The notes under the pieces are model-generated. The model saw nothing but the letters and a program-made list of their open reading frames with translations. It had not been told where the DNA came from and did no database searches. The position numbers and the translations under genes are program-made. A stretch of DNA of 29,409 nucleotides from a virus (lineage: Duplodnaviria > Caudoviricetes), in the IMG/VR virus record IMGVR_UViG_3300025635_000123, positions 1 through 29,409 of that record. One strand, written 5' to 3'. Positions 701 through 15,981 of this stretch are shown piece by piece. Numbering within the stretch: the first letter of the stretch is position 1; every line of letters begins with the position of its first letter.

Positions 701-1465
701 TCACCACATAAATGCCCTCCAAAAGATAGGGAGAGGTGCAGGGGCAGCAGGCGGGGTATAGGCAGTTCCAGTTATCGTGAACTGAATGTCGTCTTGTCCG
801 CAGCTTGGGCCGCCACTCCATGCGCCATCAACTGATGATTGCGATGAACAGCTAAACGCCGCAGGCCAATGACCCCATACACGGTAATAATTTCCACTAG
901 AGTTATCGACAGATACGTTGAGCGCGAGCCAGTACGATGTTCCACTAATTAAGTTAATCGTATCGCAAGAGCCTTGGGTGTATTCCTGCTTTGTCGCCGA
1001 TGGAGTCGGAGATGGTGCACCGCCACATGTTCCGATAAGAGTTCCAGGGTTGTTGCCGCCGTCAGTGAATATCTGTATCCGCACATTGCTCGGTGAACCG
1101 GCAGCGACATAATAGGTAGCTCCCATACTCGTCACTGTGCAGGAGTTGGTAGCGGTGAATTTAGTCGCCCATCCAATTTGTGAGACAGCGGATGCTCCGA
1201 AAGCTGGGTTGTCACCAGTCCCATTCGCATTTGATGCACAGGTGAGGGCAAACGCCGGCGTAGGGTTGATAACAACCGCACAACTTACCGTAATGCTAAG
1301 AATGAGAGCTATCGTGGATAGACTCCCTTTCTTAAACAGTGTGTACGCGGCCATCCGCATAGGTCGCATTGACCTCCACGCATGGTGAAAGTCCGCGTGT
1401 CGCAGTGAGGACACTTTGGCATAAGCCTGTTTAATAAGTTTTTTAACATGTGTTGATCGTAGCAT
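701..1465 (-). CDS. Exported beta-rich protein with signal peptide (true start may be a downstream Met)
   Basis: KKG followed by hydrophobic SLSTIALILSITVSCAVV and AFA|LT signal peptidase I site; 6 Cys in the mature part; ATKFT...VRIQIFTDGGNNPGT recalls extracellular beta-sandwich domains; Pro-rich linker and hydrophobic C-terminal tail. Confidence 0.7.
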   Translation of the reverse strand: MLRSTHVKKLIKQAYAKVSSLRHADFHHAWRSMRPMRMAAYTLFKKGSLSTIALILSITVSCAVVINPTPAFALTCASNANGTGDNPAFGASAVSQIGWATKFTATNSCTVTSMGATYYVAAGSPSNVRIQIFTDGGNNPGTLIGTCGGAPSPTPSATKQEYTQGSCDTINLISGTSYWLALNVSVDNSSGNYYRVWGHWPAAFSCSSQSSVDGAWSGGPSCGQDDIQFTITGTAYTPPAAPAPLPIFWRAFMW

Positions 1466-1476
1466 ACGAATAGCTA

Positions 1477-4400
1477 TTACAAACCTGTAGACTGCTGGAT
1501 TGTGGAAAACGTACAGGACACAGATGTCGGAGAAGAGGCGGGAGTCCCGTACTTCACATAGAAGGTGGCACCAGCAGATGGCGTGTTATTCGAGGAGAAC
1601 GTTGTGGTGGCAGGGGTAGACGAGATACTAATGGTTGCAAGGTGTGTCGAGCCGTAGTACGGGTCGGCTTTTATGGTGCCTGCATCGGTGGAACATACCG
1701 CTTGCGTGATTTTCACCGCGAATGGAAGCGTTATGTAATTGACGTTCTGAACCGTAGGGCTTGAAGTGCCAGTCCATGTCGTTGTAGCGTACGGCATGAA
1801 TATAGGACGTTCAGGCGTAATAAACGAAGTAACTGTTGATGTGCCGAACACATTGGTGCCATTCACTGATAGGTTTGTGCTCGACGCACTTATAAGTGTA
1901 AACAAACCTGCGTTATTGAGTTTGGCGAGTACCGTATCCGCAGAATCAGACACTACGAACGAGAGTGTCGACGCGCTGGTGTCACTACCTTTGACTGAGA
2001 GCATACCCCACGGAGTCGTTGTGCTTATGCCTAATTTGCCTCCGCCGGTGAAGTAGCTATTGCTTGCGCTTGTTATTTTAAGCGTGCCAACTGATGTGAT
2101 GTTCCCAGATGAATCGACTTGGAATAAGTCACCACTACCGACAGTAAGGAGAGACGCGGGTGATGCGTCACCAATCCCAAGGTTTCCTGCTCCCGTAAGT
2201 CGCATATTTTCATTTAGCACCAGACCACTCGTTGTTCTGAATACGAGGTCAGTCCCGCGTTGAGAAGCGTTGTGCGTCTGATTAGCGATAGCTCCAATAT
2301 CTGCAACATTAACTCCCGGCGCGGTGTAGTTGGTATCGTTAGACCAAAATTGCAAATTGCCTATCGAAGAGTTGGTTACAATGGCTGCGCGGGAACTCCC
2401 AATTACGAGTGGCGCAGTGGTCGTCGCAGTTGTGGATGCTTGGAATAAGTTAGGGTAATCCGTCATTGACAAGATGCCGAAGTTACCCGATTGAAGATTT
2501 GAGTTACCAAGTAGGATACTCGTATTGTTTGTAGCACCGGTAAGTGCTTCGACAACCAGGCCGACTTGATTTGTTACGGTGCCAGTACCGCCATTGTTCG
2601 GGTTAGCATACCGATACCCTACAAGATTAGTGAGAGTTCCTGAGTGCCCAGCACTCATAACTAACGAGCCAGTATTCAATCGCACTGTAGTGATAGTGTC
2701 GGAACCACTCGCGATTGTCGTGTTGTTATTTATATTGGTGAATGTAGTAATCGGTGAACTGAGCGCAATAGACGGGTTCGCTCGTATATTTTGCAGAGTT
2801 CCTGATATATTCGCATTTATAGTAGGTGAGAAGTCTATCAGGTTGTTGGCATACGATGATATGCCGGTATAAGTTCCCGTTACTTCCAGAAGACCGCCAC
2901 CATCACTGTTAGCTCCTCCAATCTCCAACAACGACGTTGGCACGTTTGTTCCTATTCCTATTTCTCCATTTGCTTCAATCTGCAAAGCTGCTACGGAAGA
3001 ATCGACGAGACTATCGGAGGTTGTACCGATAGTAAACTCTCCACTGTCCGATATCATAAACCAGTGTTTTTGATCTGTAGAAGCGTTCGCGTCGGTAAGT
3101 GTTACTTTGCCACCGGAATTACTCGCAATTTGCAGAAGCGAGCTTGGCGACGTTGTTCCTATGCCGACATTGCCAGTCGATGTTATCCTCATTCGCTCGT
3201 TGCTCGCTGAATTTCCACCGGTTAGGAAGTTGATATAACTTTTTGTCGCGCTTGTCGTCGAAGTCTCAAGGGTGAGTGCTCCGTTTGAATTTTGTAGGAA
3301 AAGTAGGTTGGCTACGTTTGTCCCCGTCCCGAAGGTTGTATCGTTATAGCCAGACGAGTTATATCCGAGGAACCCGTAATTTGTCACAGTGTTATCAGCC
3401 GCCTGGTCATTGTTCAGAAAAAGTCCTGTATATGCGTTTGCGCCGTTGCTCGCGTTACCTATACCTTGCGAGACACCATAGGCAGTATTGTCGTTGCCCC
3501 ATGTTTCGATACAAACGGCGGAAGCTGATAGTGAACTGATACCAGAACACTGTGTATTATTAGGGCTTGAAGCCCCGAAGTGCATGTAATTGCTATAGAA
3601 TGTTGATGTACCAACGACAGAGAGAGCGTATTGCGGACTTGTCGTCGCGATTCCTACCGAACCGCTAGAGTTCCAAACACCACTTGGGAAATATGCGTTG
3701 CCAGACACGGTGATTGCTGTTGAGGACGCATATGTTGCGTACCAGTTTGTTGACCACCCCGTTGTTATTGTTCCTAGTGTTGACGTTGAATTTGCAAAAT
3801 TATTCCTTCCTGTCCATGTGTTATTGTCAGCAAGAAGTGTAGTAGACGCACTTCCGAACGTGTTTTGTGTTTTCCAATAATCAGCACTGGTCGTGCTGAA
3901 AAAGTATCCCTTATCTATTAGGGCTAGTGAGGTAGTCGATATTTTACCATTAAACGTATTCCAGTCAGTTGAGCTTATGTAGCCATCTTGGCTTGCGGTG
4001 CCTTGTTGTATGCCGAGTGAGCCGGTACTGCCAATTTGCACAAAGCTTCCTGTAAGTGGGGAAGTAGCGGATAGAGTCGAAGTAGCAATGCCGTATACTC
4101 CCGCCGCACCGTTAGATACCAAAAGATTGCTCGATGATGGTTGTGTTGTCGTAGAAAGACCTGTCCATACTATAGTGCTATTTGAACCTCCGACGAGAGC
4201 ACCAAGAGTTGAAAGACCGCTAAACGGGCCTGTAAAAGTCAAAGTGGTCGTAGATACAGCACCAAGTTTTTCAGGTGTTTGCCCAGAGGTGGTCCAGTAG
4301 GCGAGCTGGCCGATAGTCGGTGTTGTGGAAGTTGAGACATTGCCTGTGCCTCCGGAACCACCTGTGGGCCACGTTGTCCGACATGTATCACCATTAAGGC

Positions 4401-4767
4401 ATAGTGTGGTCGCGCTTACCGCAGTCGTACTGGCATTAACTAGTTGCGATGTCGAGGAAGCAAAAATACCATTTTGCATCCATAGTGGTGTAGATGTTGC
4501 CTGGACTGGTACGCCGTAGTTTGTAAGACCTGTTGTAAACGGCCAAACACCTGAGCCGCTAGACGGCCATACAGTTCTGCAATCGCCTGATATACAAACG
4601 GTTTTAGCGTACACTCCGTTCCATTCCAATGTCGTAGTTCCCAAATCATACCTATCAGTTGTTTCTGGCAGAGTATTACGGAGAAGTGTTGAAACCGGCG
4701 CAGCGTATACCATTGTGGCGAACAACGTGATCAATATTGCGAGTCCTGCAATTGTAAGTTTATTCAT
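1477..4767 (-). CDS. Large Ser/Thr/Gly-rich tail fibre or adhesin with Sec signal peptide
   Basis: Likely start MNKLTIAGLAILITLFATMVYA|AP at 4767; five GxxGI[GAS]xxxP fibre repeats; two C-x-x-GD(T)CRTxWP motifs; 8 Cys. Confidence 0.75.
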   Translation of the reverse strand: MNKLTIAGLAILITLFATMVYAAPVSTLLRNTLPETTDRYDLGTTTLEWNGVYAKTVCISGDCRTVWPSSGSGVWPFTTGLTNYGVPVQATSTPLWMQNGIFASSTSQLVNASTTAVSATTLCLNGDTCRTTWPTGGSGGTGNVSTSTTPTIGQLAYWTTSGQTPEKLGAVSTTTLTFTGPFSGLSTLGALVGGSNSTIVWTGLSTTTQPSSSNLLVSNGAAGVYGIATSTLSATSPLTGSFVQIGSTGSLGIQQGTASQDGYISSTDWNTFNGKISTTSLALIDKGYFFSTTSADYWKTQNTFGSASTTLLADNNTWTGRNNFANSTSTLGTITTGWSTNWYATYASSTAITVSGNAYFPSGVWNSSGSVGIATTSPQYALSVVGTSTFYSNYMHFGASSPNNTQCSGISSLSASAVCIETWGNDNTAYGVSQGIGNASNGANAYTGLFLNNDQAADNTVTNYGFLGYNSSGYNDTTFGTGTNVANLLFLQNSNGALTLETSTTSATKSYINFLTGGNSASNERMRITSTGNVGIGTTSPSSLLQIASNSGGKVTLTDANASTDQKHWFMISDSGEFTIGTTSDSLVDSSVAALQIEANGEIGIGTNVPTSLLEIGGANSDGGGLLEVTGTYTGISSYANNLIDFSPTINANISGTLQNIRANPSIALSSPITTFTNINNNTTIASGSDTITTVRLNTGSLVMSAGHSGTLTNLVGYRYANPNNGGTGTVTNQVGLVVEALTGATNNTSILLGNSNLQSGNFGILSMTDYPNLFQASTTATTTAPLVIGSSRAAIVTNSSIGNLQFWSNDTNYTAPGVNVADIGAIANQTHNASQRGTDLVFRTTSGLVLNENMRLTGAGNLGIGDASPASLLTVGSGDLFQVDSSGNITSVGTLKITSASNSYFTGGGKLGISTTTPWGMLSVKGSDTSASTLSFVVSDSADTVLAKLNNAGLFTLISASSTNLSVNGTNVFGTSTVTSFITPERPIFMPYATTTWTGTSSPTVQNVNYITLPFAVKITQAVCSTDAGTIKADPYYGSTHLATISISSTPATTTFSSNNTPSAGATFYVKYGTPASSPTSVSCTFSTIQQSTGL

Positions 4768-4768
4768 G

Positions 4769-5665
4769 TTAGTAAAATAATACCTCAACTAAAGCCATCA
4801 ATGTCTGACCAGAAGCGGGGGTAGTTATCCCGGCAGCTAAAGACAGTTGATTTCCTGATAATGTCCAATCCGCTGTATCGAAAGTAATAGGAAAGCTCGT
4901 ACCCCACAGCCCCAGCACATCCACTGTGTCTTTTGGTAAAACGAAATCACGTGTTACGCCGTCTACTTGGTCAGTAAGACGTATGCGCTTCACGACTTGT
5001 GTTTTTCTGATTATTGGTCGCGGAATAGCATCAATATTCGCTTTCAGCCGTTTCTCCATTTCTGACAATCCTTTAATTGCGTCACTACTCAACCGCTCGT
5101 CCCCCTGTAGAAGCTCTAAGCTGTTTCTAATTTCTTCAGGGGACAAATCCTTGATATTTCCAGGTTCTCCAGGTTCCCCTTTTTCTGGTGGCGGTATGAG
5201 CGGCTTAATAAGCGAAGTGAGTCTCTCGTCTGAAACTTCTCGTGGTAACACCTCTCTAATCAAACCGAGTAATCGCTGATCGGAAGGCATAGCACCTTCT
5301 ACCGATTTCTTTACTTCGGGTCGGATAAGACTCAGTAGCTCGTCATCGGTAGGAGTATGTCCATCTGTGACAAAAGGAATGAGAGGTTCAATCAATGCCG
5401 TTAATTCTTCATCGGTAGGAGTATGACCAGGGTCTCCTCTATCGCCCTTCTCGATTGTCTTTAATTTGCTGGCAAATTCCGCTGCCACTGTACTCATGTT
5501 GTCTGAGGATACTTTACCAGTCTTAAGCGACTCAATCTCCTCCGCTTGTTCGTCGAGTTTATCCTCCAGCTCGTGAATGAGGTCTAAGAGAAGCAGGGTA
5601 GCGTCATTTCCACCCCTTTCAGCCAAGGTAATTAGTCTTTGGTCTTGTGGGGTTAGGTTGGGCAT
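4769..5665 (-). CDS. Virion structural protein with short collagen-like triplets and helical repeats
   Basis: KGDRGDPG and KGEPGEPG; repeats GHTPTDEELTALIEPLIP / GHTPTDDELLSLIRP / SDQRLLGLI / SDERLTSLIKPLIP; C-terminal DGVTRDFVLP beta domain. Confidence 0.65.
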   Translation of the reverse strand: MPNLTPQDQRLITLAERGGNDATLLLLDLIHELEDKLDEQAEEIESLKTGKVSSDNMSTVAAEFASKLKTIEKGDRGDPGHTPTDEELTALIEPLIPFVTDGHTPTDDELLSLIRPEVKKSVEGAMPSDQRLLGLIREVLPREVSDERLTSLIKPLIPPPEKGEPGEPGNIKDLSPEEIRNSLELLQGDERLSSDAIKGLSEMEKRLKANIDAIPRPIIRKTQVVKRIRLTDQVDGVTRDFVLPKDTVDVLGLWGTSFPITFDTADWTLSGNQLSLAAGITTPASGQTLMALVEVLFY

Positions 5666-5734
5666 AACTTTATTGCTTTTTCGCGCAATTATGGCAGTGT
5701 GTTGGTATGAGTATAATTGTTTTCATAAGTATTT

Positions 5735-7474
5735 TTATTCTTGCTGAAGCTGTTGCTCACTATTTCCTAGCTGACTAGCCAATTTTGGGAAGGCTCTATA
5801 TAAAACTTGGCGTATACCAGGATTTTGTTGCATTACTTTTGTTATTGCTGAGGGAGTCTCGCTGCCCAACCACGCGGCGATATGCGTCTTCGCAGTAGTG
5901 CTTTGTAATGCTTTATCGAGTACTCCTGCGCTTATACTTGCCAGTATGACCGGTATTGCTGCTCCCCCTGTAGCTAGAGCTGTCAAAGCACCTGTAACTG
6001 TTCCGACTTTAACAGGCATTGAGATCAGGTCAGAGCGGCGCAGAATCTGGTCACGATGAAGCGTGGCAAGCTCTGCGGATGTTAAATCAGCATACTGTTG
6101 ATTTAATCTTGTTATTTCAGGTGAATTTGCACTAACTGCAGTATTTATTTTTTCTTTTATACCACCATATACTCTTTTTAGAACAGCGTTTACAGTTTTA
6201 TCATCAGATGGATTGCCGGTAAACTTCGTTTGACCAGAAACTAACTGTTTCAAATCAAATGCTTCTTGAGGTGATAGAGTACTCAGATTACGTGGTGTTG
6301 ACCCTATTTTTTCGATAACCCCTTCCGTGTTTACTTGGTGCTCAAACAAAATAGCGTCTTTCGCATTTTGCAGAGCAGTCACGACTGACTGGTTGCCCTT
6401 ACCTCCTTTTGCTGCTTCTGCTATTGCATCATCAATCTTTGCAATCTCCGCAGAAACATCAATCCTTGCGGCAGCATTTTCAGGAGAAGCCATTATATTA
6501 CCTATCTTTTGTCCTATGTCTTGTTTTGCGGCAGTAATGTTTTTTTGGAAATCAGGTAAAGAATTGCCTGTGATACCTAATTCAGACACCGTTCTACCAG
6601 GGTCTTTACCATAAGAGAAGTCAGCTTGTCTTGGTTTAATTAAGCTGTTTATAAAGCGTGGTGCTGAATCCTTTGTAATCGCAATACCAGCACGCACCCC
6701 ACCTATCGCAACCGGCACACTTGCTCCTAGTAATGTCCCTAATCCAGGTTTGAAAGCATCAAATCCTGTTTCTCCTTGTTGGAGATTACCAGCGACGTCA
6801 TATCCGTAACCAGTCGCTCCACCCACTAATGAACGACCTGCTGTTTCTTTACCTATCGTCTTCAAAGTTTGAGATAATGCTTGTTTCGTTGGTTGGGCAG
6901 CAACTTCTGCGCTTTTCGCTAGCAAACTACCTGTCTTTGCACCTTTTGCCGCAGCCCCATAACTACCAAATGACGCGATATCAAGAGCTGTGCCCGCAAC
7001 ATTGCCTAAAACCTCGCCAGTCGTATCATTCAAATTTGGATACAATTCAGCCGCTGACATTCCTTTCATACCACTACTGATCAAATCAGCAATCATTGCA
7101 TCTGCTTTAGTTGTATCAATACCCTGTTCCTTAAGCCTATTTCGAGCTGCAACTGCCGTCTGAAGATTTGCTGAAAGTTGCTCTGATTGTTTTGAATAAG
7201 CAGATGTAGCTGCTGGCGCGCCAAGAGCAGCACCGATTTCTTTTCCAAGATTTATTTCCGGTGATAATAAGCTCCCAACTAACCCTCCAACCAACGGCTT
7301 GCCGCCAATCTTCGGCATTTCATTAACTTGTTTATTTCCAATTCCTGACCACACAGTGTCAGCAAGTGAGGATGATTGTTGCAATCCCGCAAGTGGCAAC
7401 TGGTTTCCGACAGGTTTTAAAGTACTGAAATCGGGTTGATTTTGTACTGGCCTTAATGTCTTGAAATCTGGCAT
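5735..7474 (-). CDS. Putative internal virion / DNA ejection protein
   Basis: Gly/Ala-rich hydrophobic stretches, no Cys, N-terminal PDFxTLxPV duplication, position after nozzle as in podovirus ejectosome genes. Confidence 0.6.
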   Translation of the reverse strand: MPDFKTLRPVQNQPDFSTLKPVGNQLPLAGLQQSSSLADTVWSGIGNKQVNEMPKIGGKPLVGGLVGSLLSPEINLGKEIGAALGAPAATSAYSKQSEQLSANLQTAVAARNRLKEQGIDTTKADAMIADLISSGMKGMSAAELYPNLNDTTGEVLGNVAGTALDIASFGSYGAAAKGAKTGSLLAKSAEVAAQPTKQALSQTLKTIGKETAGRSLVGGATGYGYDVAGNLQQGETGFDAFKPGLGTLLGASVPVAIGGVRAGIAITKDSAPRFINSLIKPRQADFSYGKDPGRTVSELGITGNSLPDFQKNITAAKQDIGQKIGNIMASPENAAARIDVSAEIAKIDDAIAEAAKGGKGNQSVVTALQNAKDAILFEHQVNTEGVIEKIGSTPRNLSTLSPQEAFDLKQLVSGQTKFTGNPSDDKTVNAVLKRVYGGIKEKINTAVSANSPEITRLNQQYADLTSAELATLHRDQILRRSDLISMPVKVGTVTGALTALATGGAAIPVILASISAGVLDKALQSTTAKTHIAAWLGSETPSAITKVMQQNPGIRQVLYRAFPKLASQLGNSEQQLQQE

Positions 7475-7475
7475 A

Positions 7476-9338
7476 TTATTGTTTTATCCAATTTCCATTA
7501 GCGTCAAAAGTCCCTCTGTTTCCTTTTGCATCTTCATATATTTGTCCTACAGTGAATTCTTGACCTTGAACAGTCACTTTTGTTCCTGGTTGAGAAGAAG
7601 ATGCTGTCTTCAACTTATTATATGCGGAACCAAGTACTGCCTCATAAGGCCCATCAATAGCGTCATCAAATGCCTTTATTCTTCCTTTCATGATCGCAGT
7701 GTTAAGCCCCTGTGTTTTATTTATGCCTGGGAATATTGAAGCGATATCTTTTCCTTCTTGTTCTGAATAAGCAGTACCAGATACAGCATTACGGTATATT
7801 TGTAGTGAAGATTGTATCTGAGTCGCAAGTTCTACAAGTCGAGGATCTTTAACCGCGCCAAGATTGTTAAACACCTTTTCATAATTCCCTGAAAAAATGT
7901 TCGTCTTACCACCCGCATCGTAAAAAGCTTGTAGTTCTGACTGTAAATTCAACATAGCTATTTTAGCCGCCTCAAATTTTGTTACAGAGGTAGCTTCAGT
8001 TTGTCCCATTATTTTCTTCGCGTTATTTTTTATTACAGTAACTGGGTCTTCTCCATTATTTATAGCATTTCTAATGGTTGCTGCTTGTTGTTTTGTAAAA
8101 GAACCAGAACCAAGAATAGTGCCAATTATACTCGAATACTGCCCTCCTAAATAACCTTCATCAATTAACGCCAATGTTTCAGCTTTTAACTTTGCTGTGC
8201 TCGCATAACTGGCAGCAATCTGTGCTTTCCTCGCTTCTTGTTCAAGGCTGAACGAAAGTGGGGCTTGTCTCAATTCCTCTTGTTTCAGTTTGAGATTTGT
8301 TATAGCAAGCTGTGTAGCGTTAGGGTCTGTCTGATACTGACCCACAAGATTAAACACCTGCTGCAGATAGTCTGGTGAAAAAGTATCGAGCTGCAGAGCA
8401 CGTTGTGCAGCTTGTTGCGCTGCCTGATTTCCAGGGTTATTCGATACTGCTGCGTTCACAAGAGCGAGTCCGGCCGTTTTGTCATCCTTAGCAGCGTTCA
8501 ATAGTCTCGTTCGTTCAGTTATGTAAGCAGATAGCTCGGCCTCTTTCTTTTTATCTTGTCGGCCGAGATTATCTTTATTCATGTTATACGCCATCTGCAA
8601 TTGATTGAGTTGTATTTGGTAGGGGAGAAACTCCTGTTCAACAGCGTTCTTAGCGATATCCTCTGCTCGCGCAATATTCCCCTGCAGGGTAGCCCCAAGA
8701 GAAGCAAGCCCAAGAGCTTTGATAGTGTTTTGCCGTATCGCTTCTGAATTATTAGCCTGATACGAAGCTGCACCACCGATGGTTATACCTCTTCCTGCAA
8801 GCGCAGGGTCTTTTGTGGCATCATACGTCTGAAGTCCTGTAATCGTGTTTTTAATACCAGTTATTTGGCTAGATAGGTCTTGCGACTGATTCAGTAAGTC
8901 AGCATAGTTTTTATATCCTAACTGAGAAGCAGCAATATCCTTTGCCTTAGTAGAAGCTCCAGTTGTATCTATGAGTCCATTCGAGCCAACAACACCTCCC
9001 ATCGATCCGATTCTTTTTTGCAATTCTGAAAGTTGAGTCTGATTATTATTATAAGCAGTGTCTGAGGTAGTGTCACCGTATACTTTATTGAAAACATCAC
9101 TAATTGAACCAAGAGAAGACAGCGCACTAGGAACAGTACTAGGTGGTGAAGGTGGTGGTTGATACGTCGCACCCGTTTGCAAATTACTCGAAGTCACTGC
9201 TGCAGGGGGAGTGTAGGCGGGAATGGTTGGAGTGTAACCAATCCCTGCTTGAACTCCGATTGATTGTACTGGTGTTAGTCCAGCATCTTGGAGTGAAGCA
9301 ATTTTCTGTTGTTCGGTTTGCTGTGGCATATTAGACAA
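7476..9338 (-). CDS. Putative internal virion / DNA ejection protein
   Basis: Q/A/S/T-rich helical protein, no Cys, podovirus-like gene order. Confidence 0.6.
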   Translation of the reverse strand: MSNMPQQTEQQKIASLQDAGLTPVQSIGVQAGIGYTPTIPAYTPPAAVTSSNLQTGATYQPPPSPPSTVPSALSSLGSISDVFNKVYGDTTSDTAYNNNQTQLSELQKRIGSMGGVVGSNGLIDTTGASTKAKDIAASQLGYKNYADLLNQSQDLSSQITGIKNTITGLQTYDATKDPALAGRGITIGGAASYQANNSEAIRQNTIKALGLASLGATLQGNIARAEDIAKNAVEQEFLPYQIQLNQLQMAYNMNKDNLGRQDKKKEAELSAYITERTRLLNAAKDDKTAGLALVNAAVSNNPGNQAAQQAAQRALQLDTFSPDYLQQVFNLVGQYQTDPNATQLAITNLKLKQEELRQAPLSFSLEQEARKAQIAASYASTAKLKAETLALIDEGYLGGQYSSIIGTILGSGSFTKQQAATIRNAINNGEDPVTVIKNNAKKIMGQTEATSVTKFEAAKIAMLNLQSELQAFYDAGGKTNIFSGNYEKVFNNLGAVKDPRLVELATQIQSSLQIYRNAVSGTAYSEQEGKDIASIFPGINKTQGLNTAIMKGRIKAFDDAIDGPYEAVLGSAYNKLKTASSSQPGTKVTVQGQEFTVGQIYEDAKGNRGTFDANGNWIKQ

Positions 9339-9729
9339 GCATTAAAATAAAGTAAAAGTTTGAGTCAGCTAACACACCGAGAGCTAGTGTTGATACCTCA
9401 AAATAGTTAGCGTTAATAGCAGAAAATATATCCGCTGTGTCTGCTGCAGTTCCTCCTATAGCAACAACAGTATATTGAGTAGTATTCAGATTGTGCGTTA
9501 CCTTGTATTTACCTGTCGCAGTCTTTGTTGATGTCCATCCAGTTGGGAGTGTTACTGAGCTTCCAGTTGATGACACTTGTCCACCATAAATCCCGCCAAT
9601 AATTCTGTGGTTATCATAAAGCTGTATATTTTTCCAAAAAGAGTATCGATCCGGCCTTTCAAAATTCATTTTCCATCGCTCTAGTACTTCAAGTCTTTGC
9701 ATAATCAATTGTGCATCTTCAGGACTCAT
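9331..9729 (-). CDS. Small tail protein (needle- or tip-like)
   Basis: N-terminal short coiled coil; C-terminal LPTGWT...TGKYKVTHNL beta domain typical of fibre tips; coupled to the nozzle gene. Confidence 0.55.
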   Translation of the reverse strand: MSPEDAQLIMQRLEVLERWKMNFERPDRYSFWKNIQLYDNHRIIGGIYGGQVSSTGSSVTLPTGWTSTKTATGKYKVTHNLNTTQYTVVAIGGTAADTADIFSAINANYFEVSTLALGVLADSNFYFILMLV

Positions 9730-11228
9730 ATTTTAAGTATATCGTATTCGTAGGCATAACCGACAATTCTCGCTCCTTTCGTACTTTCAATTCTGAACTC
9801 TATATTTGTTCCACTTACAAAACGATCACCACTTGCTGTTACCGCTTTATAATGGGTTAACCTTGTATCTGGTGATGTTGCTGTTTTAGTCATAATAGTT
9901 GTCGAAAAAGCAGAAGTGGAATCTACACGATACTTCACAACGACCTGCGCCGCAGAATAGAGAGGTTCGGTAAAAATTTCAAAGGAAAGTAATTGCTTTT
10001 TTTGCATCCAATCACCGTCTGGCATCTCAGGATTAACAAGTGTTTCGTAAATACAAGTCTGCGCGAAAAGTGAATCTAAAACGGAACTATTTATCGTTCT
10101 TGTTATTGTTCCCACACTCGTATGAACAAAATAGGTATACCCAGCAATTCTTGCTGCTGCTAATACACTCGTTTCCGAATTATCATTTGTTGCTCCCTGT
10201 TCAACAGTGTATACCCAAAGACCATTGTTTTTATTTCTCGATAATGACGACAAACCATGTATAGTTTTATTACCGGTCAAATCAAACGAAAAGAAAAACT
10301 TGCCAGCATCAACGAAATTAACCTTCGGATTAATCGTGACAGCGGCCGATGAATCCGCTACGTTATAGCTTGTGATTTGTTTAATAATTTGCGGCTTACC
10401 CCCTCCATAAGCATGGAAAATTACCGATTTAGACACCTCAGACGATGATGTATTCGCAGGATAATCACTGACTATAATCAAATATCCATCAATTGAATTC
10501 ATTACTCTTGCCCGACATGCTCCTAGTGGTTCGCTCGCAGTTATAGTTACCCTGGTTTCATCGCAATCCCAGAGATACAAGAACGATTCATTTGCAACAT
10601 ATCCTACAATTGCAAGCATCGTATCGTATTCCCATAACGCCGTTGGCGTAAAATTCGTAGGCAAAGATGATAGCGCTGTATCTGCCCATGACGAACCATC
10701 ATAACTAGCTATAAAAGCACCACTGGACGTAGTATATGCAAAATAAATCTTGTCATTCTTAGAATGTCGGTGAGCAGCGAGGAACGTTGCACTAGCAATA
10801 GTTCGCGCTGTTGCTGCAGATGCGCCTGTACCGTCAAGATTTACACTATAAATAACTCCAGCAGCAGAACGAGCAAAATACCATTTGCTCCGATGCTCAA
10901 CAAGAAAGGTCGAACTTGCAGCTGCTGGCGCAGTCAACCCTGCAGTAGAAGACGCCCAATTGCTAGCGGCATCTGCTTTGCTATACATTTTTCCATTTCC
11001 GCTTCCATCCTCACCAAGTCCCCACATTTGATTATCAGAACCAGGTTTGATTATTGCTATGTTCGTTTGACCTGTTGAATCTGTCGCCACACCAGGTAGA
11101 GGGAACAGAACATTACGCATCATCGTCAAATCAAAATTCTTAGAAAACGAACATTGACCTACTGTGCGACTGTATTTATTGTCAGCTATTCCATTTCCGA
11201 AATCTGTCACCGTGATGCGTTTAGACAT
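9726..11228 (-). CDS. Putative tail nozzle / stabilisation protein (P22 gp10 or T7 gp12 analogue, beta-propeller)
   Basis: 500 aa beta-rich; N-terminal ITVTDFGNGI motif; position after the adaptor. Confidence 0.6.
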   Translation of the reverse strand: MSKRITVTDFGNGIADNKYSRTVGQCSFSKNFDLTMMRNVLFPLPGVATDSTGQTNIAIIKPGSDNQMWGLGEDGSGNGKMYSKADAASNWASSTAGLTAPAAASSTFLVEHRSKWYFARSAAGVIYSVNLDGTGASAATARTIASATFLAAHRHSKNDKIYFAYTTSSGAFIASYDGSSWADTALSSLPTNFTPTALWEYDTMLAIVGYVANESFLYLWDCDETRVTITASEPLGACRARVMNSIDGYLIIVSDYPANTSSSEVSKSVIFHAYGGGKPQIIKQITSYNVADSSAAVTINPKVNFVDAGKFFFSFDLTGNKTIHGLSSLSRNKNNGLWVYTVEQGATNDNSETSVLAAARIAGYTYFVHTSVGTITRTINSSVLDSLFAQTCIYETLVNPEMPDGDWMQKKQLLSFEIFTEPLYSAAQVVVKYRVDSTSAFSTTIMTKTATSPDTRLTHYKAVTASGDRFVSGTNIEFRIESTKGARIVGYAYEYDILKI

Positions 11229-11229
11229 A

Positions 11230-12312
11230 TCAGTATTTTATAAGATCAACTTCGTAGCTCTGTAGAGTACATGAAACTGTACCCGCTGTACTACGACCTC
11301 TGAAATCTATATATGTCGTTGCAGCAGTGTTCGCAGCGATCCTAAAATTATTTATAAACATGTCATTCGTCGAAACAGTTGCAGGAGTTGTCGGCCCCTG
11401 TTGTGCGTTGCCCCAACCAAAGACAGCCGCCGTACTTGTCGAGAATATGTCGGATTTGATGAGTACCAGGGAATATGGCGCGCCAGCCACCTGATACACC
11501 ACTGTCGAAGTTGCGGTTCCATTACCGAAATCCATTTGCGGATAGCAAAGTCCACTACTTCCTATGACTTCGTATGTAGCCGTAACCTGTAAACGGGTTG
11601 TAGAAGTGAGTGTATTAGCAGATATAGCAACAGTCTTAACAGTTGTGGTTGATGTGTTCGAGGTCGAAAGAGCAAGGTTCCCACCCGATGACAACACCGT
11701 GAAAACAGGCGTCCCCCATGTGAGACTTCCACTACCATTTTCCATTAGGACAGTTGAACTCGCACCTCGGACAGATGGGAATTTATATGCTAGTCCATTG
11801 AGAACGAGAGCGTTTGCCGTTGTGCTCGATGCTGCAATCGTGGTGGTTGCATTGTGCGTCCAGGATCCAGTAAGGGCATATGTGGCGGTTGTATCAAATG
11901 AAATCGACTGCCACGATGGGGCTGTAGCTGCTCCGTTTGAAGCGAGCACCTGACCAACGTTACCGAAACCGCTCACTGTTTTCACGATGTCAGTCCCATT
12001 CCCAAGGAGCACCTGGTTTGAGGACAGAGTGGTGGAACCCGTACCGCCATAAGGGACGGTGACGGCTGTTCCATTCCAAGTGCCAGAAGTGATAGTTCCC
12101 ACGACAGCGAGATTCGGTTTAGATGTAGTCGCATAGAAGGTCGATATCTCAAGTTTGTCGGTATTTAGATTCGAAAAATTAGTATTTATCGTCGTTCGAG
12201 AGTTTGAAAGAGTGTCAGAACCATTTATCGTTGTTACGGTTGAACCGTAATTAGGAAAAAAGAAACTTGCTATTGCCATAAAAATCCCTGTAATAGCTCC
12301 AATGATACTCAT
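11230..12312 (-). CDS. Fibre-like protein with hydrophobic N-terminal leader
   Basis: MSIIGAITGIFMAIASFFF leader, then DTLSNSRTTINTNFSNLN attachment-type helix, VPYGGTG and GQVLASNG...PSWQ fibre motifs; 2 Cys. Confidence 0.7.
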   Translation of the reverse strand: MSIIGAITGIFMAIASFFFPNYGSTVTTINGSDTLSNSRTTINTNFSNLNTDKLEISTFYATTSKPNLAVVGTITSGTWNGTAVTVPYGGTGSTTLSSNQVLLGNGTDIVKTVSGFGNVGQVLASNGAATAPSWQSISFDTTATYALTGSWTHNATTTIAASSTTANALVLNGLAYKFPSVRGASSTVLMENGSGSLTWGTPVFTVLSSGGNLALSTSNTSTTTVKTVAISANTLTSTTRLQVTATYEVIGSSGLCYPQMDFGNGTATSTVVYQVAGAPYSLVLIKSDIFSTSTAAVFGWGNAQQGPTTPATVSTNDMFINNFRIAANTAATTYIDFRGRSTAGTVSCTLQSYEVDLIKY

Positions 12313-12485
12313 AGTGGTCTATTCGTCATGCTTCCAGTATGACCGGACTTATTATTGATTGTGTACGGATTATCCCACGTCCCTTGTGCTGAATCCCAAG
12401 TAAAAGTTGCTTCATCCCACGTCAATGACTGGCTACCGTTTTCCTTATTTGTCATCGTTGCTGTATTCAATGGTCTGTTTGTCAT
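12309..12485 (-). CDS. 58-aa protein with three TWD repeats (not in the ORF track)
   Basis: MTNRPLNTATMTNKENGSQSLTWDEATFTWDSAQGTWDNPYTINNKSGHTGSMTNRPL; ATGA overlaps at both ends and fills the gap exactly. Confidence 0.8.
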   Translation of the reverse strand: MTNRPLNTATMTNKENGSQSLTWDEATFTWDSAQGTWDNPYTINNKSGHTGSMTNRPL

Positions 12486-13231
12486 ATGTAGGAAATTGGC
12501 GCAGGTGTCATACGTGCTTTCGTGGGATGGCGTAAATCGATGAACTCTTTGAGGTCTTTCTCAATTTTCATAATTCTCTGTTGCAAGAGAGATATGAGGT
12601 TTCCATCATCAGTCCTATTGATGATGTTCCAATCGAGAGCAGGGTAAAGCCCTAAAAGCTCATGAAAAGGAAGCGGAATACCAGGCTCTTTCGTAGTATC
12701 AGTGTAAACAAAATAACTTTGTTGTCTTCCAAAAAAAATCTCAATACCATTCGTTGCTGAGTAACTAGGTAATGTATCGAGATACAAAACGTTACCCAAT
12801 TCTAGAAATCGCGATGGGGTTCCAGTCGCACCACTGTCGGGGGAAATAATATCTGCTACCTCGTCACTATCCGCAGTGACTCTCTCTAATTCTACATAGT
12901 TAGTCGCATTAGATGATTGGAGAACTCTAACATGAGTAATATTGAGTATATCTAAAGAGTTAGCATCTGTAGTTATTTTGTAATCATTTTGACTTGCAAC
13001 GAGATTCACATATCCCACAGGTTGGTCGGAATGGTTCAAATCATCCCAGCGAATTTGATCGTTGTAAGCCAACAAAAGAGGCATTATACGAGCGAAAGCA
13101 CTGCTATTCACCGAAGCAGTAAACTCTTTTAGTAGGTTTGTGTCGCCACTAACTGTCGCACGCGGCTGCCTAGTCCAACGCTCATATAGTTGCACTAACC
13201 CGTCGTATGTTGATGTGTCGTTAAATTGCAT
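12482..13231 (-). CDS. Putative head-tail adaptor (P22 gp4 / tail tubular A analogue)
   Basis: Directly after the capsid gene; NLVASQNDY and EPGIPLPFHELL motifs typical of adaptors; start MQFND preferred because the upstream ATG lies inside a hairpin. Confidence 0.65.
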   Translation of the reverse strand: MQFNDTSTYDGLVQLYERWTRQPRATVSGDTNLLKEFTASVNSSAFARIMPLLLAYNDQIRWDDLNHSDQPVGYVNLVASQNDYKITTDANSLDILNITHVRVLQSSNATNYVELERVTADSDEVADIISPDSGATGTPSRFLELGNVLYLDTLPSYSATNGIEIFFGRQQSYFVYTDTTKEPGIPLPFHELLGLYPALDWNIINRTDDGNLISLLQQRIMKIEKDLKEFIDLRHPTKARMTPAPISYI

Positions 13232-13246
13232 GTTGTGAGGGGTTTC

Positions 13247-13290
13247 TTTCCCCATCCCTGCCCCGTGGAAGAAGGGGCAGAGTGGAGAAA
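13247..13290 (-). terminator. Long hairpin after the capsid gene (attenuator or mRNA processing/stability element)
   Basis: mRNA UUUCUCCA-CUCUGCCCC(9-nt loop)GGGGCAGGG-A-UGGGGAAA, 17 bp with 2 G-U pairs and one bulged A; no U-tract. Confidence 0.6.
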
Positions 13291-13296
13291 CAGACG

Positions 13297-14169
13297 TTAC
13301 GCAACGTTCACGTCATAGACCAACGGCTTGAAGGTCGTTGGAACGAGGTGACCGATGTCAACACGGCTGTAGAAAAGCGTACCCGAAAGGATGCCTCCCG
13401 ATGAGCCAGCAGGGAAATCCTGTGTCATCATCTTTCCGTAAAGGGATCGGAGAATACCTATTCGGTGAGTTTTCTTGACTCCGGCCATGAGGTGGTTCGC
13501 TGTAAGGTCGTTTGACCAGTAGTGGTCAACTCCCATGTAGCGGAAACCTTCCACAGTGCCGTCACCAAGAGCTTTGTCAGCTAGGTTGAAACCGTTTGCT
13601 TGCACGAAGGCTTCGAGAAGCTCGAAGTCAGCAGGTCGCCATACGATGTATGCGCCATACGTTCGCATACGGGTATTCCCGTTTGCTACTCGAATAATGC
13701 GCTTGATTCCTCGGATAATGTCGTCAATGTTTGAAGCTGAGACAGTTACCTGAGTCGTTACACCGGAAGCAACACCACCCGCTCCGTCAGAGCCTACGTC
13801 AGTCCAGGAGGCGTGTTGTGCGAGCGTATTTGTCTCAATGAACTCATTGAGCAAATCAGCCTGCACTTCTGCAATTTCCATTTGAGTGTTGTAACCAGTC
13901 TGAGCCATGTCAGCAAAGTCAACGAAGATAGGCATATCCCTACCAGTTGAGATTGTGAGAGTTTCAGCGGTAAACGCCACATCTTGTGGGTTAAATACAG
14001 TTCCACGAGTTACTGTCTGAGCCGATGGAACGGTAGACATGTAACCTGAGTTGATCGTACGGGTATCTGTTGGAGTCACCTGACATACGTCCTTCCAGTT
14101 TTGGGGGTGAGCAAGTCGGTGCTGCAGCGTTGTCTCGTAGTCTTGTGTGTAAATTATAGTATTAGCCAT
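13297..14169 (-). CDS. Major capsid protein (HK97-fold expected, P22 coat-like)
   Basis: 290 aa directly after the scaffold; ETLTIS, DDIIRGIKRII, YIVWRP and GFRYMGVDHYWSN match the layout of coat proteins. Confidence 0.82.
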   Translation of the reverse strand: MANTIIYTQDYETTLQHRLAHPQNWKDVCQVTPTDTRTINSGYMSTVPSAQTVTRGTVFNPQDVAFTAETLTISTGRDMPIFVDFADMAQTGYNTQMEIAEVQADLLNEFIETNTLAQHASWTDVGSDGAGGVASGVTTQVTVSASNIDDIIRGIKRIIRVANGNTRMRTYGAYIVWRPADFELLEAFVQANGFNLADKALGDGTVEGFRYMGVDHYWSNDLTANHLMAGVKKTHRIGILRSLYGKMMTQDFPAGSSGGILSGTLFYSRVDIGHLVPTTFKPLVYDVNVA

Positions 14170-14175
14170 AATTTT

Positions 14176-14202
14176 GATTCGCTAAACTTATTAAAGCGAA
14201 TC
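14176..14202 (-). promoter_or_regulatory. Hairpin in the capsid gene leader
   Basis: GATTCGCT-N11-AGCGAATC perfect 8-bp stem ending 6 nt before the capsid ATG. Confidence 0.5.
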
Positions 14203-14224
14203 CCAGACACTTGATTTTCGACTC

Positions 14225-14785
14225 CTAGTCGTTATAAAACATTTTATTGTTCTGGCTACTTGCGCGCCTAGCGGCTACATATTCAGCGGCTAACTTTCTT
14301 CCAAGTTCAGCCGGTGGGTGTTCACCTTTGGCTAGCCAGTACTCAACGGAAGTGCGGCCTCCACTACTCCCTTGTCCACCTCCGCGAGCAGCGTCAGCTG
14401 CGGCTTCATTAGACTTGTTCGTACGGAGTTTTTCAAGGCGAGCTTGGAATATATCGTCACTTTCCAGTGCATCAATATCCATTCCTGTTCGCTTCATAAA
14501 ATCCTTTGCAAGTTGGATTTCATCCGCGCCCTTGATCCCCATTGACCGTAATAATGCCTTTTGACCATAATCGAGGTCTGAAGATTCTTTTTGTTCTTTC
14601 GAAGAACTAACCGATTCATGCTCCGGCTCAGACTTCTTCGCATTGCGTTCAGCTATTCGCTTCCACTTTGCGGCTTCTGCCTTTGCCTTCTTGGCATCGG
14701 ATTCCCAATCAACTTTAGTTTCCTGAGAGTCCTGCGAACCGTCGTTGTTTACAAGGTCAACGTCCTGGTTGTCAATTTGATCCAT
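14225..14785 (-). CDS. Capsid scaffolding protein
   Basis: Acidic low-complexity N-terminus, charged helices, Gly-rich linker, immediately upstream of the capsid gene. Confidence 0.72.
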   Translation of the reverse strand: MDQIDNQDVDLVNNDGSQDSQETKVDWESDAKKAKAEAAKWKRIAERNAKKSEPEHESVSSSKEQKESSDLDYGQKALLRSMGIKGADEIQLAKDFMKRTGMDIDALESDDIFQARLEKLRTNKSNEAAADAARGGGQGSSGGRTSVEYWLAKGEHPPAELGRKLAAEYVAARRASSQNNKMFYND

Positions 14786-14861
14786 ATATTGAGAAAATGT
14801 TAGTCACTTTACGGTGAGTGAGAACGAAATCAATTTTAAACGGATCGAGAACCGTTTTCTT

Positions 14862-15440
14862 TTAATCGTTGTAAACAGTGACTTGTGCAACACAGTCAGT
14901 TGAAGGCAACCTCATTATCAAGAGTGCTGCCATCGAGTTACCGTCTGTATCACCGTAGATAGTTGAACCAGTTGATGTAGCTGCTTTCTTGATAGCAAAT
15001 CCAGTACCTCCTGCAATGGTTAGGTTGCTTGCAGCAGTCGTTGAGGCATGTCGAATAAACACCTCTCGGCGTTCATACGTTGAAAGCGTGCTACAAAGCG
15101 GAGTTGTTGAGGCTGGCAATGTAAGCGTCTTGTTTGCCACGTTTACCGTGTAATCAAGATATGAAGCATTTGTGAACTCATTACCTGCCAAAGTAACGTT
15201 AGCACTCGTTGAGGACGAAACACGGCCACCACCAATCGTCATTCCCCCCAGAAACTGCTCGCTATTGGAGTGAACTGCGCCAGCGGCACCGTAATCAGGT
15301 GTTTGAGATGTTTGAGTCTCAACAACACGAGTCTCAACAACACGAGTCTCAACAACTTTTCCACTATTTGTCACGGCAAACACCGCAAACCCTAGAGCAA
15401 GAGTCGAAAACACTACACTAATCAAACCTTTTGTATTCAT
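14862..15440 (-). CDS. Exported or membrane-anchored protein, possible capsid decoration protein
   Basis: MNTKGLISVVFSTLALGFAVFAV leader; VVETR repeats; TLTLPA...IAGGTG beta motifs; 2 Cys. Confidence 0.65.
   Translation of the reverse strand: MNTKGLISVVFSTLALGFAVFAVTNSGKVVETRVVETRVVETQTSQTPDYGAAGAVHSNSEQFLGGMTIGGGRVSSSTSANVTLAGNEFTNASYLDYTVNVANKTLTLPASTTPLCSTLSTYERREVFIRHASTTAASNLTIAGGTGFAIKKAATSTGSTIYGDTDGNSMAALLIMRLPSTDCVAQVTVYND
15314..15356. repeat. In-frame 15-bp tandem repeat (GAGTCTCAACAACAC, ~2.9 copies)
   Basis: Read directly; encodes VVETR-VVETR-VVETQ. Confidence 0.95.
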
Positions 15441-15442
15441 GG

Positions 15443-15568
15443 TTATTTCTTTTTACTTTTAATTCCTCGACCTTTCTCTTCCAAAACTTCATCAACCTGG
15501 ACTGTTTCCTCCTGGTTAAAGAGTTTGTCTTTGAGAGAAGCCATCCTAATCCCCTTGTATTTTTCCAT
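15443..15568 (-). CDS. 41-aa charged protein (not in the ORF track)
   Basis: MEKYKGIRMASLKDKLFNQEETVQVDEVLEEKGRGIKSKKK fills the gap in the operon. Confidence 0.6.
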   Translation of the reverse strand: MEKYKGIRMASLKDKLFNQEETVQVDEVLEEKGRGIKSKKK

Positions 15569-15585
15569 TGTACTTTACTTAACTA

Positions 15586-15981
15586 TTAACGTGTTTCCGT
15601 TGCCTCAATCGTGCTATTCCCGAAAGAATAGACTTTGACTGCCCCACAGCCGAACTGACCGCCGTCATAGACGACAGTAGTTGACGCAGCTTGTGAGTAT
15701 CCTTTAGTCCCGCTCGGTGTATCACCAGTTAATTCCGTAAACGTTAACCTAATCTCAGCCCCAGTCGTTGAAATGATGCGAGCAGCACAATTCGTTGAAG
15801 TTGCGATAGCCACAAATGGGGTGGCCGAGACAGCCAACTTTGAACTTGTTGCAATGGTCGTAGAAAGCCCCGATGGAGCTGACGCGAACGTAAACTTAAG
15901 ATTCATGATAACTGCAAAAATAAGTGCCGTAAAAATTACGAAGGCGATTACTATTTCACTTCTGTTAATTCCTTTGTTCAT
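15586..15981 (-). CDS. Exported beta-rich protein, possible decoration or spike protein
   Basis: Hydrophobic IVIAFVIFTALIFAVIM, TFA|SA cleavage-like site, 2 Cys. Confidence 0.65.
   Translation of the reverse strand: MNKGINRSEIVIAFVIFTALIFAVIMNLKFTFASAPSGLSTTIATSSKLAVSATPFVAIATSTNCAARIISTTGAEIRLTFTELTGDTPSGTKGYSQAASTTVVYDGGQFGCGAVKVYSFGNSTIEATETR

Follow-up and report, generated by a model that had tools for sequence, protein, structure and literature searches.

The 29,409-nucleotide stretch analyzed here (IMG/VR record IMGVR_UViG_3300025635_000123, positions 1 to 29,409; hereafter, the window) comes from a tailed-phage genome, of which it is a 29.4-kb part; its proteins also occur on a 35,242-base contig. 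Five proteins of its late operon, of 131, 192, 360, 1096, and 217 amino acids (aa), begin with hydrophobic leaders, and we propose that all five are outer parts of the virion that are exported, disulfide bonded, in four cases likely O-glycosylated at a short motif, A-[ST]-[ST]-T, cleaved, and docked on particles at lysis. We put the probability of this whole reading at roughly 60%. Under it, the leaderless head and tail core would assemble and package DNA in the cytoplasm, as is established for tailed phages, while the five outer proteins would pass through Sec across a membrane that is likely patescibacterial and then be oxidized by Dsb enzymes. Four of the five might be O-glycosylated at the motif outside the cytoplasm; all would be cut free at Ala-x-Ala or [LFVY]-Gly sites, or be held in the envelope by pro-regions, until at lysis they meet finished particles and dock via their new N termini (the 217-aa protein, speculatively, via an aromatic C-terminal tail).

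The initial annotation had reported five open reading frames (ORFs) with hydrophobic leaders; all five exist, on the minus strand, and each has near its start an uncharged 12-mer with a Kyte-Doolittle value of 2.29 to 3.23, compared with at most 1.6 for the best such 12-mer in the other 17 of the 22 late ORFs examined. The ORF reported as 701-1465 probably starts at 1354, which gives 217 aa and matches the length of database record P0207. Cleavage-like sites (AFA, VYA, and TFA) are present, as described, in the 217-, 1096-, and 131-aa proteins; in these three, small residues at −3 and −1 lie close to the hydrophobic h-region. Judged by sequence and our home-made rule, four of the five leaders combine a basic n-region with an h-region. 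The exception is the 360-aa fiber, which has no basic n-region and no AxA site; its leader ends at Tyr-Gly, as does that of the 192-aa protein (Table 1).

From 92 related loci we took the 1738 ORFs called on the capsid strand and grouped them by clustering. A protein was scored as leader-bearing if an uncharged 12-mer with hydropathy ≥2.0 lay within its first 60 residues; this cutoff was set after the window scores were known, and the rule misfires on 7 of 53 terminases. Leader conservation, which the initial annotation had offered as a check, held in the five slot families (45/45, 17/17, 37/37, 24/26, and 15/15 members), while core families scored 0/90 (scaffold), 0/89 (capsid), 1/82 (adaptor), 1/78 (portal), 0/32 and 1/17 (nozzle), 0/35 (ejection), and 0/30 (collagen-like). 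Among 62 homologs of the long, 1096-aa fiber, 56 pass the rule, 5 more have a leader by eye, and 1 starts mid-protein; leaders of this family have the textbook basic-hydrophobic-AxA form. Conservation is seen in mature domains and not in leader sequences.

Cysteine content provides a second line of evidence. The mature proteins contain 6, 8, 2, 2, and 2 Cys (in order of increasing coordinate), as first claimed; a seventh Cys of the 217-aa protein sits in its leader. The Cys-free core proteins offered as a control proved to be a selective choice: the two ejection proteins indeed have neither Cys nor leader, but the nozzle has 4 Cys, the portal 4, the terminase 2, and the capsid protein 1. Because the leaderless nozzle, portal, and terminase counts are also even, parity in the window alone proves little. 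We therefore turn to the dereplicated late proteins of ≥85 aa encoded downstream of portal. Among the 155 that bear leaders, 48 have no Cys, 105 an even number, and 2 an odd number; the corresponding figures are 32, 20, and 19 for 71 leaderless Ser/Thr-rich proteins and 172, 93, and 163 for 428 core proteins. In the adaptor-nozzle slot, a subset that overlaps this set, 22 leader-bearing proteins split 5 zero, 16 even, and 1 odd, and 26 leaderless ones split 7, 10, and 9. Parity recurs in separate families, and the count is even in 60 of the 62 long-fiber homologs. Short relatives of the 217-aa protein show parity less strictly (29 even, 7 odd, and 4 zero among 40 with a leader; 2 even, 7 odd, and 2 zero among 11 without). 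Cys65 and Cys112 are invariant in all 36 homologs of the 131-aa protein, and in its model a topology reading places both before strands at the same end of a jelly roll. The 192-aa protein has Cys116 and Cys183, the 360-aa fiber has Cys256 and Cys348, and six of the eight Cys of the long fiber form three close pairs. On the host side, DsbB was found in 18 of 21 genomes of the candidate host family.

That the hydrophobic segments are cytoplasmic assembly helices, with Cys parity incidental, is scarcely credible. The home-made leader rule and its terminase misfires leave that explanation some room, but it does not account for 105 even versus 2 odd counts, for textbook long-fiber leaders, for unconserved leaders ahead of conserved mature domains, or for a peptidoglycan-binding domain in one pro-region (see below). 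Conserved leaders, Cys parity, the invariant Cys65/Cys112 pair, and that pro-region all support the earlier proposal of Sec export and disulfide bonding, and we consider Sec export and DsbA/DsbB oxidation of the five outer proteins very probable.

Leaderless homologs point to the predicted cut sites. In the 360-aa family, six leaderless homologs start with M-[STA]-x-I exactly one column after a Gly of the leader-bearing rows; that Gly stands in 15 of the 18 leader-bearing rows, and the residue before it is Leu, Phe, Val, or Tyr. Gly also occupies the cut position in 33 of 38 members of the 192-aa family, and in both families the −1 Gly is accompanied by a variable −3 residue and the site lies 7 to 78 residues away from the h-region. 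At −1 in the 131-aa family, 21 of 36 rows have Gly and 12 have Ala, and in the long-fiber family one and the same mature start follows either an Ala-x-Ala or a Leu/Phe/Val-Gly end (by eye). The initial annotation overlooked this [LFVY]-Gly site, as it did the A-[ST]-[ST]-T motif. Signal peptidase I was present in 41 of 41 genomes of the candidate host class, and [LFVY]-G-[AST] is only mildly enriched after the h-regions of 216 Patescibacteria-type proteins (35 versus 19; 4 versus 11 for 35 proteins of Dongia, an alphaproteobacterium). From these alignments there is a strong likelihood that the outer proteins are cleaved; host signal peptidase I is the simplest candidate, and a second host protease may act on long pro-regions. 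A pro-region of one 192-aa homolog (L034) carries a PF01471 peptidoglycan-binding domain (E = 3e-11) between the signal peptide and the Leu-Gly site, which places pro-regions outside the membrane; a collagen-like stretch also occurs among the pro-regions.

A phage papain-like peptidase was considered as the [LFVY]-Gly cutter and is unsupported: it occurs in a leaderless phage and is absent from several complete leader-bearing ones. Its four-row profile matched 8 of 38 records and 6 of 14 near-complete virus records, and one of the four seeds has a Pfam C1 match. As a separate observation, the papain-like peptidases in the lysis regions of relatives (L134 4011-5545, L132 12616-13431, L136 5990-7072, and L202 3290-4249) have Val-Gly near the N terminus, with one weak Pfam C1 match among them. 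The lysis region of a complete relative, G010, encodes an M23 peptidase with a peptidoglycan-binding domain.

Could the segments remain uncleaved, as anchors of proteins studding a host membrane in which the particle leaves? Long variable linkers and the noncanonical −3 residues before the Gly site would fit such a wrapped particle. Against it, canonical Ala-x-Ala interchanges with the Gly site at the same register, leaderless homologs exist, a holin-like gene follows the fibers, and the M23 peptidase of the complete relative comes with its peptidoglycan-binding domain; we regard membrane wrapping as very unlikely.

Leaderless proteins also share the slots of the exported ones. In the portal-scaffold slot, leaderless proteins of 87 to 92 aa are remote homologs of a leader-bearing 144-aa family (HHalign 86%, E = 5e-6). 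Among 64 distinct phages, the interval from portal to adaptor holds a leader-bearing gene in 56; of the other 8, two lack any gene there. In the adaptor-nozzle slot of 38 scored phages, the fiber has a leader in 18, and leaderless slot proteins are found in 20. On a quick 64-row portal tree, leader state changes at least 5 times in the head slot and 7 times for the fiber (at least 4 forced by strong branches). The simplest reading of these alignments is that cleavage would recreate the N terminus of a cytoplasm-made part and that both versions do the same job in the particle.

This bears on a question that the initial annotation left between two answers, a virion role, which it favored from the interleaving of these genes with core genes, and display on the infected cell. 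If displayed, the exported proteins would stay on the cell as adhesins or shields (for attachment to the host's own host or to block superinfection) and never enter the virion. Relatives of the 217-aa domain with C-terminal membrane anchors, the peptidoglycan-binding pro-region, and the Ena spore-appendage subunits among the top PDB folds of the 131-aa model, which polymerize outside the cell, are what one would expect of surface proteins. However, leaderless homologs, with no route to the surface, occupy the same slots and begin at the predicted cut site; leader-bearing genes are kept between portal and adaptor in 56 of the 64 phages; and the adaptor-nozzle slot is divided between 18 phages with a leader-bearing fiber and 20 with leaderless proteins. 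We thus consider exclusive surface display unlikely and favor the virion role; docking itself is the inferred part, and its occurrence on virions at lysis seems likely from gene order and N-terminal register.

Predicted folds are compatible with appendages. The 131-aa protein, modeled from 36 sequences (predicted local distance difference test [pLDDT] score of 90; the mature protein folded as a single sequence scored 46), is predicted to form a helix (residues 7 to 26) and then an eight-stranded sandwich, a single jelly roll, with both of its A-[ST]-[ST]-T motifs in strand-to-strand loops. This model matched 30 viral proteins at E ≤0.001, mostly uncharacterized small Caudovirales proteins, many of 85 to 110 aa and leaderless; Foldseek against the PDB gave no match at E ≤0.001. 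With VIA-align, it resembled the PM2 spike P1 (2vve; Z = 10.3), Ena pili (7a02; 9.5), the STIV turret A223 (6bo3; 8.4), and PR772 chain 6q5u_O (7.2), jelly rolls with 10 to 14% identity to the 131-aa domain; the fold is common and function is not transferable. Jelly-roll capsid cements include the Pam1, BPP-1, and epsilon15 types; no solved tailed-phage cement was among the fold matches listed. In the Atlas, both head-slot proteins have links to viral clusters whose lengths, 102 and 140 aa, equal those of the mature domains. In the 360-aa fiber, an N-terminal module past the cut is common to the leaderless homologs, and some of the 24 family members have tail-fiber or tail PHROG matches; the fiber alignment matched no solved structure. 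A complex prediction with two adaptors and three copies of fiber residues 25 to 140 gave no answer (score 0.00); the adaptor may be the wrong partner, because the Pa223 fiber docks on the hub. Long-fiber homologs include 11 of 62 with the PF13884 S74 chaperone. The 217-aa protein has weak DUF4082 and lectin-like neighbors and a short, Pro-rich, aromatic C-terminal tail.

The leader-bearing proteins are also marked by the motif A-[ST]-[ST]-T. ATST, ASST, ATTT, and ASTT are their four most enriched 4-mers. Relative to within-protein shuffles, the motif occurs 379 times versus 33.7 expected in the leader-bearing late proteins (11 times chance; present in 137 of 155), 16 versus 14.2 (1.1 times) in leaderless Ser/Thr-rich proteins, whose composition is close to theirs (24% against 26%), and 26 versus 21.7 in core proteins. 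The adaptor-nozzle slot repeats this pattern, with 64 versus 8.9 in the 22 leader-bearing proteins and 10 versus 7.0 in the 26 leaderless ones. Two further sets agree: 732 versus 90 in the 62 long-fiber homologs, a separate set, and 26 versus 4.4 in the 40 short leader-bearing relatives of the 217-aa protein. Position 1 Ala and position 4 Thr dominate, and positions 2 and 3 exchange freely. The window holds two copies in the 131-aa protein (at 60 and 99), three in the 192-aa protein (at 110, 132, and 154), 4 in the 360-aa fiber, and 11 in the 1096-aa fiber; enrichment is significant in each of the four (P ≤ 0.004), and the DNA spelling differs in every one of these 20 instances. Neither N-x-S/T (476 versus 466.2; 1.02 times) nor the Bacteroidota-type sequon D-S/T-x (111 versus 149.7; 0.74 times) is enriched in leader-bearing proteins.

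The initial annotation had raised a host from the candidate phyla radiation, which is likely, given the shared motif described below, bin matches, and scarcity of Shine-Dalgarno sites, and unproven, given mixed bins and a relative in Dongia; on sequence grounds a Patescibacteria host is the probable one. One capsid homolog is named from a Patescibacteria bin, and 3 of 11 genome-collection matches fall in named Patescibacteria bins, with 2 more among 400 class-mates. Shine-Dalgarno motifs precede 1 of 17 genes in the window, 44 of 761 in relatives, 10 of 365 in the Patescibacteria bin G002, and 63 of 262 in Dongia; Bacteroidota are likewise Shine-Dalgarno poor. A search for prophages flanked by Patescibacteria sequence gave matches in 3 of 401 genomes of the class and 1 of 21 of the family, none with chromosomal flanks.

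The integrated relative lies in a Dongia contig (G001:C7 118552-159229; loci L113, L114, L158, L115, and L086). It spans 40.6 kb, with a GC content of about 0.55 versus 0.66, and is flanked by 52-base repeats of a tRNA-Arg(ACG) end, with an integrase beside the right repeat; it also carries Replic_Relax, TraG/VirD4-like, CHC2, and two methylase genes. The likely source run yields the element as a single contig of the same depth as its flanks; no public contig bridges the junction. Shine-Dalgarno sites precede 0 of 19 of its phage genes versus 3 of 9 genes of its integration module, a difference that fits a phage adapted to another host. The element is possibly an epibiont phage lodged in a proteobacterial chromosome, or else an assembly join.

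Plasmid-like genes were seen in other relatives. G008 (L131 14700-18472 and L132 3739-4821) has ArdC, CHC2, Replic_Relax, and an Arm-binding integrase, and G009 (L135 9056-13812) has ParB and a coupling-protein-like ATPase; one of these two is a complete record with terminal repeats. In G005 (labeled Peribacteria; L079 and L083), TGA codons lie inside the signal peptidase match, so this genome may use a reassigned code, and its table 11 motif counts were excluded.

Predicted exported proteins on the host side carry the same motif. Each set was sampled in part, at 0.09 to 0.5 Mb; we counted 27 versus 8.0 in G002 (87 proteins), 16 versus 2.5 in its 20 family-mates (62 proteins), 6 versus 0.9 in G003 (16 proteins), and 4 versus 0.7 in G004 (9 proteins); in cytoplasmic proteins of the sampled host genomes the motif is near chance. 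Since the motif is confined to exported proteins, as is the Bacteroidota O-glycosylation motif in the accessible text of a 2025 review (PMC12871550), we infer a modification signal, O-glycosylation being the likeliest kind.

Several results weigh against the proposed reading or parts of it. The 217-aa protein lacks the motif, its 11 short leaderless relatives also carry it (4 versus 0.9), and the leaderless nozzle holds 2 copies (0.25 expected; P = 0.024). The motif was defined on the late-protein set itself, so that the fresh tests are the slot subset, the long-fiber homologs, the 217-aa relatives, and the host proteins; homologs are not independent counts. Host enrichment is patchy: weak in G079 (4 versus 2.2) and in five other class-mates (4 versus 1.7), and lacking in G141 (1 versus 2.1), though its binned phage has leaders, so that across bins leaders in the phage do not consistently go with use of the motif by the host. 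The 40 exported proteins sampled from Dongia have 0 motifs versus 1.1 expected, though the integrated relative keeps its own, and we found no transferase common to the candidate host family; a PMT-type transferase, tried as the motif enzyme and rejected, is present in 5 of the 21 family genomes. Cut sites lie 6 to 78 residues past the hydrophobic segment, often farther than signal peptidase I of the classical kind would accept. In many relatives of the 217-aa domain, the C terminus is a transmembrane-like anchor with a basic tail, in the style of surface proteins. As to the host, 7 of the 11 genome-collection matches are in non-Patescibacteria bins, among the phage contigs in bins, the two that were read throughout stand alone and are phage sized (the rest are short fragments), and the only integrated relative, with leaders and motifs, sits in an alphaproteobacterium. 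Finally, the whole reading is drawn from genes and predicted structures.

An alternative is that export, disulfides, and docking hold and A-[ST]-[ST]-T acts structurally, as a turn or surface motif in oxidized, beta-rich appendages. Both motifs of the 131-aa protein sit at conserved positions in strand-to-strand loops, as such a role would predict, and the patchy host enrichment, the lack of a common transferase, and the retention of motifs by a relative in a genome without them are all more easily explained this way. Yet the motif recurs in unrelated folds (the jelly roll, the second decoration family, and fibers) and in unrelated host exported proteins, falls to chance in leaderless proteins that occupy the same slots and are just as rich in Ser and Thr, and keeps Ala1 and Thr4 while positions 2 and 3 swap. 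We therefore hold a purely structural role to be possible, if rather doubtful. That A-[ST]-[ST]-T is a host O-glycosylation signal appears, on the pattern of its occurrence, somewhat better than an even bet.

Genes for possible glycosylation occur in relatives. A 190-aa family (15 members), family-2 glycosyltransferase (GT2)-like by eye, lies in the virion operon in up to three copies per phage, following the capsid gene in L019, L057, L058, L061, L064, L066, L067, L090, and L091. G009 encodes a GT2-methyltransferase fusion (L136 15086-16303), which Pfam confirmed. Some relatives may glycosylate in the cytoplasm as well.

The late operon, on the minus strand, runs from terminase through the likely portal, an 83-aa ORF, two leader-bearing ORFs, scaffold, capsid, adaptor, a 58-aa ORF, the leader-bearing 360-aa fiber, nozzle, two ejection proteins, and a collagen-like protein to the leader-bearing 1096-aa fiber, the leader-bearing 217-aa protein, and a holin-like ORF (Table 1). 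Portal, scaffold, adaptor, nozzle, and ejection labels reflect gene order and size; library matches cover the terminase (strong) and the capsid protein (weak; a candidate for the HK97 type, with PHROG major-head matches at E = 2.6e-5 and 9.8e-5). The capsid protein had no sequence match in a PDB search and no cultured relative among 50,697 GenBank phage records, and alignments of fiber, capsid, adaptor, and nozzle against solved-structure sequences gave nothing useful. The order and sizes of portal, adaptor, hub, and ejection genes, with no tape measure, fit the short-tailed type in dozens of loci, with sequence matches weak or absent.

Table 1. Features of the window, with predicted leaders and cut sites
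Feature	Position	Strand	Basis or remark
Holin-like protein, 115 aa	57..404	-	Position and shape (one C-terminal hydrophobic helix); no informative library match
Predicted exported protein, 217 aa, likely lectin-like adhesin	701..1354 (ORF open to 1465)	-	Weak DUF4082 matches in relatives
Predicted leader of 217-aa protein, 36 aa	1247-1354	-	Ends AFA, followed by L
Predicted exported long fiber, 1096 aa	1477..4767	-	Weak PHROG tail-fiber match, E = 3.6e-9
Predicted signal peptide of long fiber, 22 aa	4702-4767	-	Ends VYA, followed by A
Collagen-like leaderless protein	4769..5665	-	Directly upstream of long fiber
Two likely ejection proteins, leaderless, no Cys	7476-9338 and 5735-7474	-	Gene order
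Likely nozzle or tail hub, leaderless, 4 Cys, 2 motifs	9726..11228	-	Gene order and size
Predicted exported fiber, 360 aa, between adaptor and nozzle, likely tail-docking	11230..12312	-	Leader, docking module, motifs
Predicted cut of 360-aa fiber	near 12244	-	Hydrophobic segment 1-19; cut after Gly23
Leaderless Ser/Thr/Trp-rich ORF, 58 aa; possible cytoplasm-made fiber anchor	12309..12485	-	Family of 23, mostly just upstream of the adaptor-nozzle-slot fiber
Likely head-tail adaptor, leaderless	12482..13255	-	Gene order; weak structural/tail PHROG matches in few of 67 members
Major capsid protein, leaderless	13297..14169	-	Weak PHROG 422 and 267 matches; 1728 homologs
Likely scaffold, leaderless	14225..14785	-	Gene order
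Predicted exported protein, 192 aa, likely second head decoration	14862..15440	-	Leader, Cys pair, motifs
Predicted cut of 192-aa protein	near 15288	-	Hydrophobic segment 5-23; pro-region up to Tyr-Gly51
Tandem repeat of 15 bases in 192-aa pro-region	15288-15370		VVETR twice, then VVETQ
Predicted exported jelly-roll protein, 131 aa, between portal and scaffold	15586..15981	-	Likely capsid decoration or vertex protein
Predicted leader of 131-aa protein, residues 1-33	15883-15981	-	Ends TFA, followed by S
Likely portal, 607 aa, leaderless, 4 Cys	16313..18136	-	Gene order and size; family of 78; no library match
Terminase large subunit	19014..20294	-	PF04466, E = 1.7e-32
Primase-helicase	21397-23508	+	NrS-1-like and VapE domains
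Holliday-junction resolvase-like gene	24027-24410

A tRNA search of the window found none. Among the related loci, a SET-domain-like gene (weak Pfam match; L133 4099-4542; family of 44) is common between terminase and portal, and a sulfotransferase-like gene (by eye, with no Pfam match; L133 3146-3676) occurs in five.

If true, the proposed route breaks the rule that tailed phages make all particle parts in the cytoplasm, and the family comes with a test of its own, in that one part exists in exported and leaderless versions that share a slot and a mature N terminus. It also suggests that Patescibacteria, a major uncultured group, bear an unrecognized modification motif on their exported proteins; the motif is a precise target for glycoproteomics and may help to assign hosts to uncultured phages. 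In its broadest version, which we offer tentatively and think improbable as a whole, Patescibacteria would own a motif-driven protein O-glycosylation system, the second in bacteria; the phages would route capsid decorations and fibers through it, tether them in the envelope by pro-regions cut at [LFVY]-Gly, arm particles at lysis, and switch repeatedly between this route and leaderless parts; and a relaxase-integrase module would insert some lineages into the chromosome of a proteobacterium, possibly the epibiont's host.

A literature search, in which subscription papers were sparsely covered, returned neither an account of tailed-phage particle parts that are exported nor one of the A-[ST]-[ST]-T motif. 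The assembly route that we infer and the motif appear to be new; jelly rolls, fibers, and Sec leaders are familiar. The window contributes the motif together with its counterpart in likely hosts, the agreement in register with leaderless homologs, and pro-regions that may tether the proteins.

Several known systems share parts of this arrangement. In its predicted gene set and in gene order, from terminase to fibers, the window resembles P22, T7, and Pa223 (bioRxiv 10.1101/2025.06.11.659172). The Pa223 capsid spike and fibers attach by their N termini, a precedent for late N-terminal docking; they are modeled from residue 1 or 2, whereas the window appendages carry leaders, and the words "signal" and "disulfide" are absent from the accessible text of that report. 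The Bacteroidota O-glycosylation motif, D-(S/T)-hydrophobic (counted here as D-(S/T)-(A/I/L/V/M/T)), is likewise a short Ser/Thr motif, enriched only in noncytoplasmic proteins, but differs in sequence from A-[ST]-[ST]-T; the accessible part of the 2025 review gives it as the only known motif-driven bacterial O-glycosylation and mentions neither phages nor Patescibacteria (PMC12871550). Sugar-coated mycobacteriophage particles exist (Freeman et al. 2023, cited in PMC12582341). For the window phage, we suggest instead host modification of exported parts outside the cytoplasm. In the mycobacteriophages, phage-encoded glycosyltransferases reportedly act on leaderless capsid and tail proteins. The endolysins fOg44 Lys44, P1 Lyz, and R21 are exported by Sec, with a signal peptide or SAR domain, and parked until lysis (PMC6116005); they too are late proteins held outside until lysis, but as lysis enzymes rather than particle parts.

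Coat proteins of filamentous phages and spike proteins of pleolipoviruses bear signal peptides, and archaeal spikes are glycosylated by the host; filamentous phages and pleolipoviruses assemble at or bud from the membrane. They would share exported virion proteins with the window phage, which is of the terminase-portal-capsid type, with a core that is probably made in the cytoplasm.

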